DNA of 64,000 nt from Octopus vulgaris (GCA_951406725.2 OX597817.1:125922001-125986000); one strand, 5' to 3'; positions 10,414-24,425 are shown, counted from the stretch's first letter. The notes: generated by a model from the sequence alone, not told the origin. Numbers and translations: made by a program.

Positions 10414-10992
10414 AAATTGAGGGAGATAAATTAATATTAATTTTAATATCAATTTAAAACCAGTAGTCCAGCATTCAAAAAATCTGAGGAGTCAGAGAAA
10501 ATTCAAATATATGTGTATATTGGCAGGGCTGGCCTGCTAGGTAGCCGGCTAGAATGCTAGAAGAAGATCATCAACGATCAAACTACAAGGGAAATTCTCT
10601 AGAGGAAGAATTCAGCGAGCACCAGAACCAACTTTGGCGGGCAGGACATATGAAAAATTAAATAAATAACAGACTTAAATGCATACCTTGGTTTCGGTCT
10701 TAACAAAAGAATTACTTGCATAATTCAAGTGTCCGTGACTTCATCAGTACATTCGGTCCTCGAGATGCAAACCGCAAGACTAACCCCAGCTCTCTGTGTC
10801 AAGACAGACACGTGCTTAGTCTTACTGATTACATCGGGAATAACATTTCAAATGTCTTGGTTCTGGCGCGCTGAGAGACTCCTGAAGCGAAGGGCTGCAG
10901 TGAATAATTCACTGCGGGTAGTGCTTACAACTAGGGAACGTATTTATTTAAATATTTAAAAATTGAGGGAGATAAATTAATATTAATTTTAA
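10414..10992 (-). mobile_element. Non-coding ~546 bp element with 33 bp terminal direct repeat and internal hammerhead ribozyme, inserted in (TA)n (retrozyme-like / solo PLE pLTR)
   Basis: AAATTGAGGGAGATAAATTAATATTAATTTTAA at 10414-10446 and 10960-10992; flanked by (TA)n tracts; hammerhead core inside. Confidence 0.7.
10678..10753 (-). ncRNA. Minimal type I hammerhead ribozyme (candidate)
   Basis: AAUGUA-CUGAUGA-aGUC...GACc-GAAA-CCAAGG-UA-UGCAUU. Stem I is 6 bp with one GU, stem III is tiny, cleavage triplet GUA. Confidence 0.75.
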
Positions 10993-11064
10993 GATTGCCA
11001 ATATACACATATATATATATATATATATATATATATATATATATATATATATATATATATATAT

Positions 11065-11530
11065 AGGATGCAAAGGATTTAGCGGTACATATGTTTCTGG
11101 CTTTATTGGACAGTTTATATCAATGCATAATTGGTGTAACATGTATGTCAATAGCCTTCTTCAGCCGCGCACAATTACAATACCAAAGACACGTGTTACA
11201 TTATAGCAGGTTTCAGAAGAAGTTTGTGAAAAAGACGAGTTTCGTTGGGAATGCAAATTCTCTTAGTCGTATGGGGCAAAGCGAGACAGCCCCCAAAAAA
11301 ACGTCCATACCGTTTTTTCACTCGATTCTATATCGAGTGAAAAAACGGTATGTTACATCAATTACGCATTGATATAAACTGTCCAATAAAGCCAGAAACA
11401 TATGTACCTCTAAATCCTTTGTATCCTCTTTTTCTTTTGATACATATACCCTATCACCTACACCGCTAACTGGCATATACAGGTGCTTACAGTTATGAAG
11501 TATTCACCCTGAATTTTTTGTACCCAACTA
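11065..11530. mobile_element. Non-coding hammerhead-bearing element with divergent inverted arms, between (TA)n tracts
   Basis: ~76 bp inverted repeat (11066-11142 vs ~11350-11428) plus a perfect 21 bp hairpin at ~11306-11352. Confidence 0.7.
11082..11168 (-). ncRNA. Minimal type I hammerhead ribozyme (candidate)
   Basis: GCGG-CUGAAGA-aGGCUAUUGACA...UGUCCAAUAAAGCCa-GAAA-CAUAUG-UA-CCGC. Intact core, palindromic stem III, GUA cleavage site. Confidence 0.82.
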
Positions 11531-12401
11531 TATATATATATATATATATATATACACAAATGTGTATGTATGTATATTATCAGTATTTCTACTGAAGGTG
11601 TAGCCATGTTCATATTCCTATCTATATACATGAACTATATCTATGTTGTGACTAAACGAACATAAATAATTGAACATTATTGCATAAATTATTGTTACAC
11701 GGTATTTGCAAATTTTCTGACAGTGGATCTTCTTTGCATCCATTAATCTCCTTTTACATACGATGATTGTGTGTGTGTGTGTGTGTGTGTGTGTGTGTGT
11801 GTGTGTGTGTGTGTATCTGTGAGTGTGTGTATGAGTAGTACACATAGAATTGAAATCCATGCCATATATCAATAAACCTAAGAAATGCAATTGATGTTTA
11901 GCTGCATGATAGCACATTCTTTTCAGATCTAAGATTTTCACCGTACTACGGAATTCCAGAACCAAAAATCTCAGTAAATTCAAACATACGGATTAATCTC
12001 CATCGCTGAACTGGACACCTCCAGAGCAGCTGTTTGAGGCCAGAGTTTAATTATGACGTTAGTTTAATTATGACGTAATGGTCAAGGATACAATCTAATT
12101 TTTAATCTATTTTCTTTTGTCGTTCCTACTCACCCATCCACTTTGCATTCTCCATCTCGTTTTTCTTTAATATCTCTTGTACTAGCGTATTCTTTGGAAA
12201 ATTACATACAACATGTACTCAGAGAGTGTGGGCTGCCTGAATACACAACGCGTGTTATATAAACCTGCCTAAACTCGCGTATGTATATATATATATATGA
12301 GAGTGTGTGTGTCTGTGTCTGTGCGTGCGTTTGTTTGCGCGTGTATGTGTGTCTGTATGTGTGTGTGCCTATATGTATATGAGAGTATGCATTTATATAT
12401 A

Positions 12402-20774: not shown

Positions 20775-20917
20775 TATTATTATTATCATTATTATTATTA
20801 TTATTATTATTATTATTATTATTATTATTATTATTATTATTATTATTACTAGTATTGTTGTTATGCATACATACATACAAGCATACGTAATAATGATAAT
20901 GATAATAATAATAATAA
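20775..20917. repeat. (TTA)n and (TAA)n microsatellites in opposite orientation
   Basis: Direct. Confidence 0.9.
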
Positions 20918-23655
20918 GTGGATGTAAACACATGAACAAAATAAGAATAAACAAAAACAAATTACACAAACGTATATAAACAGAAGATACAAATATTACA
21001 GGCATTCCCCCCACACACACTAACTAAACATAGACGCACATAGAGATATACGCATGGGCAAATGAAAACACATACAATAGAAATACAAAATGGCTGACGG
21101 TTTGTAAGGAGAGACCCAAATAAGAAAGGAGAAAGCAAAGGACCACTGATGCGGTCACAGGAGTGTGACGAAAGAATTCTGGCCGAAATAAGATTAAGTT
21201 TAATGTAAAAAATAACACTGAAGCAAAGTAACACCAAATATATAGTGCGTGTGTTTTCATTGGCTAAACTGGCAAAATGACCATTCCGAAATACAACAAT
21301 AGCTTTCTTATTATAATACAGATGTGACTAATTTGGAGAAACATTACTTTTATTATTCATACAGCGTCACTCACGTAATGCAACACTTTGTAATTTTGGT
21401 TCAAATTGAAATTGTAAAGCTATTTACATGTTCTAATGAAACCTGGTAGTTATAGAGAAGTGTATTTAAAATAACTATAGCTTGTTGCGATAACCTAGAA
21501 AATATGTAAATGAAAATAAAGTTTATTTGATATTTGTAATTGATTTGATTGCTCTGGTCTTAACATCAATTTGTTTGTAATTGGCTACCCTGTTGCAGGT
21601 TCGAACCGTGGAATATTGAAATGATACCCATCTAGCCCATTCTACAGAATAAGAGTATGCTGGAGAGCATGATAAGAGGGATGAGTCTGTAAAACGCATT
21701 TAAGTTTGTTATCACGAACACGAGTGATTTTCATGGGAATCACCAAGCATAAGGATGGCTACTTCATTAGATATGGGATCATCAAAACAGCGTAAAATGT
21801 TCTTTAATATAGTTTACTATAGACGTAACGAGTGCAGAAACACAAACACATTGAATTGATAATATTAAAAACAGAAAAATGTACGCACACAAAGTTCAAG
21901 CGAAACGAAATATAGTCAATATAGGTGCCAAACATATTTTTTGTAACATAGTTATGCTATAAAAAAATGGAAAGTCATCATTTTAGTAAAAGTTACTATG
22001 CGTCAACAATGTAATAAATTACACAAAGTCAACATTTATTTGGAACGTGTACTAAATGTTATAAAATTCATGATTGAATATCATGATGAAGAAAGTGAAA
22101 GTTCAAGAAAATTCAAAAAGCATAATTCACTTATTCATAAAAAAATTATTTATTTTACAATTTTGAAACGAACACTGAACCGAGTGTATAGAAAAGAAGG
22201 TGCTGATGTTGTGAACGTTAACTTAAAATATTTGGTGAAGTATGTGTGTAGCGAGATATAAATTTGATATTACTATATATTTTTTAACTGTGTAGCGTTA
22301 CAGGCTGTAGAATAAATACTGACTTATGGAGTAAAAAGATTATGCGACGTTGATGCTCACAGTGATGAGGAAGCTTAGAAGGACTGTTAAGAATTATCTT
22401 GAAACTGCTCAGAAGGAGTGGAATAACATTTCTGTAATTTTATTGAAAAAGCCGCTGACGCCGTCTGCTTCACCAAGTTTTCGAATTAGCTTTAATAACC
22501 AGAATGACATTTAAAAAAATATATATTTGCGTGTATTCTGAGTGGTGTTAAATCAGCCAAATCTTCAATGTTAGAAGTACTTCAAAGTGAACGATGTTGT
22601 TCGTTTAAAGTCCAGGCTGCAACTAAACTTTCAATATCGGCGCGTTTCACTGCTGGGCGGGAGAAAGTTACATACATAAACTGAGACACGCACACTCACA
22701 CATTAACGCACACCTGAAGCCTATCTCTGTCCCTGTGTTTGTCTGTGTCTTTAGATGTGTGTGTTTGTATGTCAGTCATCACAGAAATGTATGTATACTG
22801 ACAGACATATACACCGTCACACACATATACTTGTCAGTCATCGAACGCGCGAACACATTCATATAGAAAATGCGACATCATTGTCGTTGTCGTGGTATAA
22901 AATGTCGTTTACGATAGGTGACTAAAAGAAAAATGACAATGTTATTTTTTTGTAATGCAAACATGTGAATGAAAATATAGTTTATTTGGTAGCCAAAACC
23001 CTAGTGAATCTATTGATACCCCATACGTCAAAATCAGCAATTCGGTTTTGGACATACGCACACACAAACACAAACACATACACACACACATACAAACTCT
23101 CTTATATATATAAATATATATATACTTAAATGTTAGTACCATCCTGTGTCTAGGCATAAGCAAAATTTAGGTTAGTTAAAATTCACTGCAATTACTGTAG
23201 ACAAAATATTACTCTTATGATAAAAAGGTGTGAAAACACTGTATTTGTTCAGTATCGCCATCTGTCAGGAATCCTAGACAGTGATGTTTCAAGATAGCTG
23301 GCTTTAATCAACGGGAAGAATCTAAGACAGGCAACTCTGAACAAATCTTATAAAGCAATAAAAGCTTTATAAGATTTGTTCAGGCAAACGCTTGAAACAT
23401 ATAAGAGATGAGAAATAAAGATAAGTTACATATTAATAGCGATGTAGGTGATATAGTATCGTGGACATTTTGCTCATTCAGATAAGATTATCAAAGTCAA
23501 ATATATACACACACACACCCACACACAGACGGGCATACAGGCGCCAACACAGATACACATACACATATATATATATACGTATACACACACACACATATAT
23601 ATACATGATATATATATATATACATTCATACACACATAACACACACACAAATATA

Positions 23656-24076
23656 GGCACAGTAGTGGCTGTGTGGTAAGTAGCTTGCTTGCCAACCACA
23701 TGGTTCCGGGTTCAGTCTCACTGCGTGGCACCTTGGGCAAGTGTCTTCTCTTATAGCTTCGGGCCGACCAAAGCCTTGTTAGTGAATGCGGTAGACGTAA
23801 ACTGAAAGAAACCCGTCGTATATATATATATGTGTGTGTGTGTGTGTGTGTGTGTGTGTGTGTGTGTGTGTGTGTGTGTGTTTGTGTATGTGTTTTCCCC
23901 CCAACATCACCAGGCAATCGATGCCGGTGTGTTTACGTCCACGTAAATTAGCGGTTCGACAAAAGGGACCGATAGAATAAGTACTATGCTTACAAAGAAT
24001 AACTCCTGATGTCGATTTGCTCACCTGAATGTGGTGCTCCAGCATTGCGGCAAGCAAATGACCGAAACAAGTAAAA
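23656..24076 (+). mobile_element. tRNA-derived SINE family A, full length, internal (TA)(TG)n
   Basis: Head GTGGCTGTGTGGTAAGTAGC...GGGTTCAGTC; body GATAGAATAAGTACT; tail GAAACAAGTAAAA. Confidence 0.9.
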
Positions 24077-24425
24077 TATAGAATTTAGTTATATCCAAAT
24101 GATTCATTTGTATAGTTATTCAATTAACCAAAATCACAAAGAGAAGTAGATAGGACATATTTCATAAGCAATAACCTAGTAGTTACTACTATGGTATTGT
24201 TCATGAAACATGTCCTATCTACTTATCCCCTTTGTGATTTTGGTTAATTGAGTAACTATACAAATGAATCCTTTGGATTTAACTAAATTCTATATTTTTA
24301 TGCAGCTTAAGATTGCTCTACATTTTAAAACCGATGTAATATTTGCATTGTTCAATTAAATGGAGTCGCATGAAACGATCGTACTGCATTACTTCTGGAT
24401 ATCCTTGTTGCTTATTTTGATTTTA
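24073..24425 (+). mobile_element. Hammerhead-bearing non-coding element preceded by ~110 bp inverted copy of its 5' part
   Basis: Inverted arms 24073-~24183 and ~24185-24298, then the hammerhead, then (TA)n. Confidence 0.72.
24301..24388 (+). ncRNA. Minimal type I hammerhead ribozyme, core mutated (probably inactive)
   Basis: UGCAG-CUUAAGA (for CUGAAGA)...UGGAGUCGCAU-GAAA-CGAUCG-UA-CUGCA. 5 bp stem I, palindromic stem III. Confidence 0.65.

Follow-up and report, generated by a model that had tools for sequence, protein, structure and literature searches.

Hammerhead-bearing insertions in (TA)n tracts of the Octopus vulgaris genome: two probable truncated ends of Hydra-clade Penelope-like elements and a retrozyme-like 546-nt repeat

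We examined a stretch of 64,000 nucleotides (nt) of the 2.8-Gb Octopus vulgaris genome (OX597817.1:125922001-125986000; G000:C4:125922001-125986000), hereafter the window, which contains many repeats and abundant (TA)n. Three insertions in it carry a type I hammerhead ribozyme fold and are designated E1 (10414-11008), E2 (11064-11520), and E3 (24072-24423). With good confidence, we read E2 and E3 as 5'-truncated ends of Penelope-like elements (PLEs) of the Hydra clade, and E1 as a young, non-coding 546-nt hammerhead repeat, that is, a retrozyme without long terminal repeats (non-LTR retrozyme), for which insertion in trans by enzymes of the Hydra clade is likely; for the hammerheads, cutting in dimeric form is predicted. 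A first-pass annotation had described all three as distinct non-coding self-cleaving families. This description suits the retrozyme-like E1, whereas E2 and E3 prove to be truncated pseudo-LTR ends of lineages that encode a reverse transcriptase (RT) and an endonuclease.

Hammerhead folds and their conservation

A descriptor scan of the window recovered all three folds where the first-pass annotation had placed them. In each, the cleavage site is GUA, stem II is long (insert of 45-60 nt), and the insert in stem III measures 6 nt. The E1 hammerhead (10677-10754, minus strand) combines a 7-bp stem I, the core box CUGAUGA, a 45-nt stem II, GAAA, and CCAAGG, with an A.C pair at the base of stem II and a predicted cut after 10684. 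Similarly, the E2 hammerhead (11082-11168, minus strand) has a 4-bp stem I, CUGAAGA, a 60-nt stem II, GAAA, and CAUAUG, with A.A at the base of stem II and a predicted cut after 11086. The E3 hammerhead (24300-24389, plus strand) has a 6-bp stem I, CUUAAGA, a 59-nt stem II, GAAA, and CGAUCG, with U.U at the base of stem II and its site at 24383. Its core departs from the family majority, CUGAAGA, by a G5>U change at 24308, which suggests that the window copy is likely inactive. The stem III sequence CCAAGG previously given for E1 is present in the window copy but represents a minority variant (variant position 10689), since 53 of 59 unit pieces carry CCGAGG.

Chance matches at this rate are rare. 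With a stricter descriptor, three folds were found in the window when up to one core mismatch was allowed, whereas 100 block-wise dinucleotide shuffles averaged 0.09 and none reached three; with a perfect core required, it found two against a mean of 0.01, and no shuffle reached two. Eight weaker descriptor matches in the window were discarded as low-complexity or lacking palindromy. Genome-wide searches, which yielded 820, 1186, and 2023 first-look candidates for E1, E2, and E3, established that every element is multi-copy; per family, 40 candidates were scored and the best 30 retrieved. Both core boxes are intact in 52/53, 25/35, and 35/40 of the full-span copies, respectively.

Covariation was assessed in 33 copies of the E3 lineage, chosen by endonuclease and sequence similarity rather than by fold, after removal of two duplicates from 35 rows. 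In this set stems I-III covary: 88.7% of cells pair, and 63 cells show double changes against 22.4 in shuffles (0/500 reach this value) and 4-10 in slid controls. Stem I, stem II in each of its two parts, and the palindrome of stem III all contain double changes, the last with CGAUCG replaced by CAAUUG in nine rows. The E2 family is too uniform for such an analysis on its own, and for E1 the helices are supported by subfamilies that differ in their stem letters and keep the fold. These sequence patterns indicate that the hammerhead fold is under selection.

The self-complementarity of stem III, also proposed in the first-pass annotation, was confirmed. By computation, the 8-nt stem III forms no monomer fold, but two copies form a duplex (-4.7 to -10 kcal/mol), in line with the dimer cleavage reported in PMC4209133.

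Rfam listed no hammerhead among 150 of its 179 matches in the window, none in 10560-10960 (E1), and none at gathering score in three loci with intact PLEs or E1 arrays (L260, L265, L283), likely because its hammerhead models do not accommodate the long stem II. The microRNA (miRNA) matches that Rfam did return in the window correspond to microsatellites and fold-backs. Because a covarying long stem II escapes these models, such hammerheads are probably undercounted.

Insertion anatomy and the Hydra-clade lineages of E2 and E3

All three elements adjoin (TA)n tracts in the window, and the same holds across their families: (TA)4+ directly follows the outer 3' end in 29/32, 32/38, and 30/33 cases for E1, E2, and E3, compared with 8-12% of random positions. 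Each family possesses two fixed 3' ends, one short and one long, and two-armed insertions combine one of each in 17/17, 12/12, and 7/8 cases (36/37 overall), a pattern that the window copies also obey.

The main arm of E2 (11064-11323, minus strand) is a 5'-truncated 3' end, or pseudo-LTR, of a Hydra-clade lineage and terminates at the short end. Its inverted arm (11349-11520, plus strand) contains the 3' half of the hammerhead, without CUGANGA, and the tail, and terminates at the long end before a (TA)n tract at 11529-11554. The short end of the window copy falls about 15 nt short of what is usual in the family. For E3, the main arm (24180-24423, plus strand) is likewise a 5'-truncated Hydra-clade pseudo-LTR with the short end, followed by (TA)n from 24424, and a remnant of the inverted arm (24072-24152, minus strand) is cut off by a dispersed repeat at 23900-24075. 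A second E3-family insertion at 15190-15429 is a fold-back of two very short arms flanked by (TA)n on both sides; its minus arm has the short end and its plus arm the long end, and only the 3' half of the hammerhead is present. A miniature inverted-repeat transposable element or fold-back DNA transposon was rejected for both E2 and this second insertion, because the fixed ends differ between the arms and the inner breakpoints vary.

Sequences resembling E2 and E3 were found downstream of GIY-YIG endonucleases, as the first-pass annotation had suggested might be sought at the ends of PLE open reading frames (ORFs). The E2 family extends at least 1.2 kb upstream, and an upstream walk in two steps from E2 reached a same-strand endonuclease at six distinct places among 25 loci. 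At three loci (L194, L196, L197) the endonuclease and an E2-like end, 80-87% like E2, lie on one strand about 3 kb apart, and their endonuclease pieces are 69-78% identical to the intact 842-amino-acid (aa) ORF of L265; between L194 and another locus, L154, an alignment of 2,256 nt shows 86% identity. Two loci (L265, L266) hold the intact 842-aa ORF together with a pseudo-LTR 76-77% like E2, and in both E2's tail precedes the ORF.

For the E3 family, similarity between copies continues upstream for up to the whole 1.5-kb flank. At L091, a hammerhead 95% like E3 lies in one run with an endonuclease about 1.9 kb upstream, across an AT-rich untranslated region (UTR); this endonuclease is frameshifted and retains CxCx5C, VVY..YFG, CxxC, and CxH. 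The same link was observed at L127, L128, and L138. A genome search with the L091 endonuclease returned 10,790 candidates, and one with a related RT revealed open frames of about 980 aa. Three such loci (L260-L262) are intact, with ORFs of 980-981 aa that contain RWK, DKT, YRDD, CxCx5C, CxxC, and CxH, a long-stem-II hammerhead in each pseudo-LTR, and a tail that runs into the ORF start. These intact ORFs belong to sister subfamilies, 54-67% identical to the E3 endonuclease. Long Asn-rich insertions between the RT thumb and the endonuclease bring some E3-lineage ORFs (L260, L131, L134, L135) to 980-1090 aa.

Both lineages thus display a single ORF with an RT and, at its C terminus, a GIY-YIG endonuclease, insertion into (TA)n, a pseudo-LTR hammerhead, an inverted 5' copy, and a tail at one end, as expected of the Hydra clade. 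DKT is present in the L260 and L265 ORFs, with RWK in the former and RWA in the latter; the CxCx5C linker and CxxC/CxH around the end of the endonuclease occur in L260, L265, L091, and L182, and CCHH is absent by sequence reading. The Hydra tendency to remain below 3 kb is exceeded, with an ORF of 2.5-2.9 kb and a 3' UTR of 1.6-3 kb. The earlier view that all three elements lack ORFs therefore applies to the window copies, but the E2 and E3 families run upstream into GIY-YIG ORFs. Describing the elements as unrelated was also too strong: ORFs of the E2 and E3 lineages share 50% identity across an alignment of 696 residues, and E2 is detected, at a rough E-value of ~0.007, by a covariance model built on the E3 lineage.

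The E1 unit and its candidate helper

E1 is of a different nature. Its main arm (10414-10995, minus strand) comprises one ORF-free unit of 546 nt (10449-10994) with a single hammerhead; past the unit, it repeats the unit's first ~40-55 nt and terminates at the family long end, next to a (TA)n tract at 10314-10414. The inverted arm (10996-11008, plus strand) measures only ~13 nt and terminates at the family short end; the match at 10996-11014 includes TA. In 26/26 distinct loci the family consists solely of unit sequence, whether tandem, in an inverted arm, or truncated, with a tandem period of 546 nt and arrays of 2-4 units. A 26-nt motif of E1 has 308 exact matches in the genome, whereas a control motif has none. 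The unit has a GC content of 39.6%, its longest sense frame is 41 aa, no similarity to PLE proteins was detected, and it folds better than 100/100 shuffles (z -3.2). Family arrays contain at least two consecutive units that each carry a full type I hammerhead, within a non-coding sequence of less than 50% GC, as expected of the genomic form of a retrozyme. Units of the same array differ by 0.95%, those in opposite arms by 1.16%, and those at separate loci by 2.2%, and the four units of one array (L283) are identical; from these divergences of about 2%, we consider the E1 unit young.

The lineage behind this young unit appears to be old. Sister subfamilies with tandem periods of 544 and ~520 nt align along the full length at 55-58% (z 16-19), and one of them yielded 3,058 candidates. 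They retain the core, stem I, a stem II built of a short helix, an internal loop, and a long helix, and a palindromic stem III with other letters. This full-length alignment with a kept fold argues that E1 represents an old non-coding lineage rather than a recent deletion of a known ORF, and no parent ORF was found in 29 E1 loci or in 30 loci of an older sister subfamily. Judged by its sequence, E1 is the only true non-autonomous unit among the three elements. The older sisters (L200-L229, L128:2200-2960, L265:6953-7263) have stem III inserts of 6, 7, and 8 nt. As a lead, a long helix that encloses the hammerhead outscores every shuffle in E1 and in two copies of its sisters, which is not the case for several older copies; three further strong values in this test arise from inverted arms. 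Assembled contigs from four runs of guessed type also cover E1, but they include neither joints nor ends and are uninformative on strand, level, or circles.

A further ORF-free tandem family (L194:4865-7038, L197:700-1500, L199:6300-7900) has a period of 554-561 nt, a hammerhead with a 25-nt stem II, CGUACG, and a GUU site, and a tail end that resembles that of E1. As a secure E1 homologue it was rejected, its similarity being marginal (z 0.9-3.1).

In the window, the 13-nt inverted arm of E1 and the short end of E2 meet in one (TA)n tract (10996-11066; tract proper 11009-11065), and another E1 adjoins an E2 copy at L142. E1 is likely a nested insertion into the (TA)n tract of E2.

The spacing of the fixed ends offers a means of proposing a helper for E1. 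Measured from the cut site, the two ends lie at ~171 and 270-285 nt in E1, 37 and 107-122 nt in E2, 38 and 138 nt in E3, and 37 and 152 nt in the 980-aa Hydra family, so that the gap between short and long ends is ~100-110 nt in E1 (~90 nt in an E1 sister), ~75-80 nt in E2, 100 nt in E3, and ~115 nt in the 980-aa Hydra family. In a Neptune/Nematis-type PLE with a 775-aa ORF (L280-L282), the ends lie at 137 and 169 nt, a gap of only 32 nt. Since the E1 gap matches the Hydra and not the Neptune-type value, the Hydra clade is the likely helper of E1. More broadly, the (TA)n ends, the two-armed insertions, and the links to Hydra ORFs bear out the PLE-type mobilization with a (TA)n preference that the first-pass annotation had envisaged.

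It is unlikely, in our assessment, that E1 is instead moved by the Neptune/Nematis-type PLE. This family is very young, with DKG, Cx4CxxC, 4.27-kb tandems, and many intact copies of equal score (15,387 candidates, 150 scored); it also ends in (TA)n with two fixed ends, and a young E1 requires an active helper. However, its ends are 32 nt apart rather than ~100 nt, its ends share no significant similarity with E1, and young intact Hydra ORFs exist too. The hammerhead-like motif of this family departs from the usual core, reading CCGAAGA, and combines a short stem II with a palindrome of 4 nt.

Under the Hydra-helper reading, a transcript would read through a tandem or partial tandem and thereby place two hammerheads in one RNA. 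The 8-nt self-complementary stem III would then pair between the two copies, and cuts after GUA would probably release unit-length RNA. The RT-endonuclease would nick both (TA)n strands and prime cDNA synthesis at the short and long RNA ends, producing one arm in each direction and 5' truncation; we hold this step to be quite probable. Because both fixed ends lie downstream of the cut site and yet the genomic hammerheads are unbroken, the template would have escaped cutting, been closed again into a circle, or been bridged by a jump. With up to four near-identical units, E1 arrays favor repeated copying of one unit, for which a circular template is a tentative suggestion.

The notion that all three elements are independent non-autonomous retrozyme families, or, in a weaker form, that E2's closest subfamily is an internally deleted non-autonomous Hydra derivative, appears very unlikely to us. 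It draws on the absence of ORFs from the window copies and on E2's closest subfamily (90-95% alike), in which no ORF was seen and whose link to the endonuclease passes through the copies 79-87% like E2. However, rather than forming a short ORF-free tandem unit, the E2 and E3 families have ragged 5' ends and are continuous into the 3' UTR and the endonuclease. The only E3-family tandem seen (L073-L075; G000:C29:24631406-24632498) was rejected as a family tandem, since it is a single-locus chimera with foreign DNA: its three 460-nt units join an E3-family end to RT-like pieces and pieces resembling short interspersed nuclear elements. It is possibly a newborn chimeric retrozyme or a local duplication.

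Growth of E1 arrays at the DNA level from single PLE ends, by unequal crossover or slippage with the hammerhead as an inert passenger, is in keeping with the local tandem amplification discussed by Li et al. 2026 (bioRxiv 10.64898/2026.07.22.740005), with identical units within an array (recent duplication or gene conversion), and with non-canonical 10.1-11.1 pairs, but we judge it highly improbable given that the arrays are short, occur on many contigs, and have at their borders the two fixed ends and inverted arms that also mark single PLE insertions, that subfamilies no more than 55-58% alike retain core and stems, and that 52/53 E1 copies keep both core boxes.

Several observations, together with the ORF-less closest subfamily of E2, weigh against our reading of the three elements. 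The locus samples lean to intact copies because only the best 30 of 40 scored were retrieved. Two of the five covariation measures (pair and type counts) fall within the shuffle range (35/500 and 62/500), and other measures are inflated by shared ancestry. No intact ORF of E3's own subfamily was seen; in the intact sister ORFs, Pfam found no RT and placed GIY-YIG only below its cut-off (E 0.004), and the Hydra assignment follows from motifs and by-eye comparison with a published alignment rather than from a tree. As E1 shows no significant similarity to the tested Hydra pseudo-LTRs (z -0.3 to 2.1), its helper is named purely from end geometry, for which one PLE family outside Hydra, the Neptune-type, was measured. 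One E1 array (L285) has units 5% apart, and near-identical units also fit a uniform donor array or DNA-level duplication. The G-C pair at 10.1-11.1, usual though not universal in type I hammerheads and present in 14/33 E3-lineage rows, is absent from E1, E2, and E3, and A.C, A.A, or U.U in its place may slow cutting. Finally, PLE hammerheads cut weakly in vitro (PMC4209133), and 8/9 predicted frog retrozyme dimers did not cut (bioRxiv 10.64898/2026.07.22.740005).

A bolder extension, which we consider possible but doubtful, is that E1 is part of an ancient, independent lineage of viroid-like RNA circles of ~0.55 kb, with three or more subfamilies 55-58% alike. These circles would cut as dimers via a hammerhead with a long stem II, and Hydra-clade enzymes with which they share no sequence would paste them into (TA)n. 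The end gap would then be a ruler set by the enzyme, from which the helper clade of any animal retrozyme could be named, and the enzyme may read the conserved long stem II.

Neighboring features and comparison with known systems

Instead of the three GIY-YIG PLE remnants previously reported in the window, two clear ones were found; a further signal, at 11853-11963, reaches only E 0.06. The first (5638-7331, minus strand) is a decayed Hydra-type PLE with RT thumb and endonuclease pieces; the second (53703-54298) is a decayed two-armed remnant with the linker on the minus strand (53703-53819) and the endonuclease on the plus strand (53998-54298). The suggestion that these remnants could be related to the mobilizing partners found no support, as they are decayed, 25-44% identical to intact proteins, and without a link to E1-E3. 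The window also contains a decayed long interspersed nuclear element (45211-47848, minus strand) with endonuclease and RT frames (Pfam RVT_1 at 45425-46099), Mariner/Tc1-like transposase remnants at 18338-18937 (plus strand; Pfam Transposase_1) and, by eye, at 9754-10035 and 60116-60415 (both minus strand), and a 3-kb AT-rich minisatellite (60660-63896) with 11/22/33-nt periodicity. Two near-perfect fold-backs (38992-39087 and 25685-25892), miRNA-like in Rfam below the gathering score, are possibly further two-armed insertions. Beyond the window, more than ten further hammerhead families were met incidentally in the flanks of loci L001-L199 (749 kb), with stem II inserts of 10-97 nt and a stem III that is palindromic in most; such families are thickly scattered through the genome.

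Hammerhead-bearing Hydra PLEs, the targeting of (TA)n, and retrozymes are all known from earlier work; the departures here are the 45-60-nt stem II insert, the 75-115-nt tail, and the long UTRs. The Hydra clade of PLEs with a C-terminal endonuclease includes Hydra-1_Obim from Octopus bimaculoides (Craig et al. 2021, PMC8557442), and the E2 and E3 lineages share with it RWK, DKT, the CxCx5C linker, and CxxC with CxH, as well as (TA)n targeting, a pseudo-LTR hammerhead whose stem III is palindromic and whose stem II often has a basal U.U, partial tandems, a 5' inverted copy, and a tail at one end only. They differ in the stem II insert (~12-26 nt in 26 Hydra rows of File S2, by our own count), in the tail (30-40 bp stated for PLEs), and in element length (~4.5-6 kb here against generally <3 kb); the hammerhead listed for Hydra-1_Obim also differs from those of E1, E2, and E3 (PMC8557442).

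The hammerheads resemble the PLE hammerheads of PMC4209133 in being type I with a short stem I and a palindromic stem III, for which dimer function is predicted, and in occurring as many dispersed single copies from truncated PLEs, with opposite-strand pairs 100-700 bp apart; dimer cleavage is also treated in PMC7761336. However, stem II is 6-8 bp in PMC4209133 and much longer here, and the G10.1-C11.1 pair described there as highly conserved is absent from all three window copies. The literature found on octopus, Penelope, hammerheads, and retrozymes contained neither these families nor a paper on extended stem II in Penelope hammerheads; Repbase, Dfam, most subscription papers, and the preprint and Cervera supplements lay outside this search.

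Animal non-LTR retrozymes with proposed PLE helpers (PMC7229834, PMC7761336, Li et al. 2026) are the closest counterparts of E1, and E2 and E3 are not of this kind. E1 shares with them an ORF-free tandem unit, one type I hammerhead per unit, few units per array, and a low GC content. Its 546-nt unit exceeds the 150-450 bp of animal retrozymes but lies inside the 51-972 bp range of Li et al. 2026, and its hammerhead is PLE-type with a long stem II rather than the canonical short one. Known retrozymes yield linear and circular monomer RNA, whereas E1 is likened to them from its genomic sequence. E1 also recalls Chlamys elements such as MRC1, which are non-coding PLE passengers with pseudo-LTRs and head-to-tail multimers; those elements resemble their autonomous partners at the 3' end, whereas E1 has no significant similarity to the partners tested (PMC8557442). 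PLEs have been proposed as helpers of animal retrozymes, but in PMC7761336 such repeats come without a motif that identifies the helper, whereas the PLE arms and the pair of fixed ends in E1 insertions offer a pointer to the clade of the helper. With a young retrozyme and two active PLE clades in one genome, the match of the E1 end spacing to one of them would provide a named enzyme-RNA pair.

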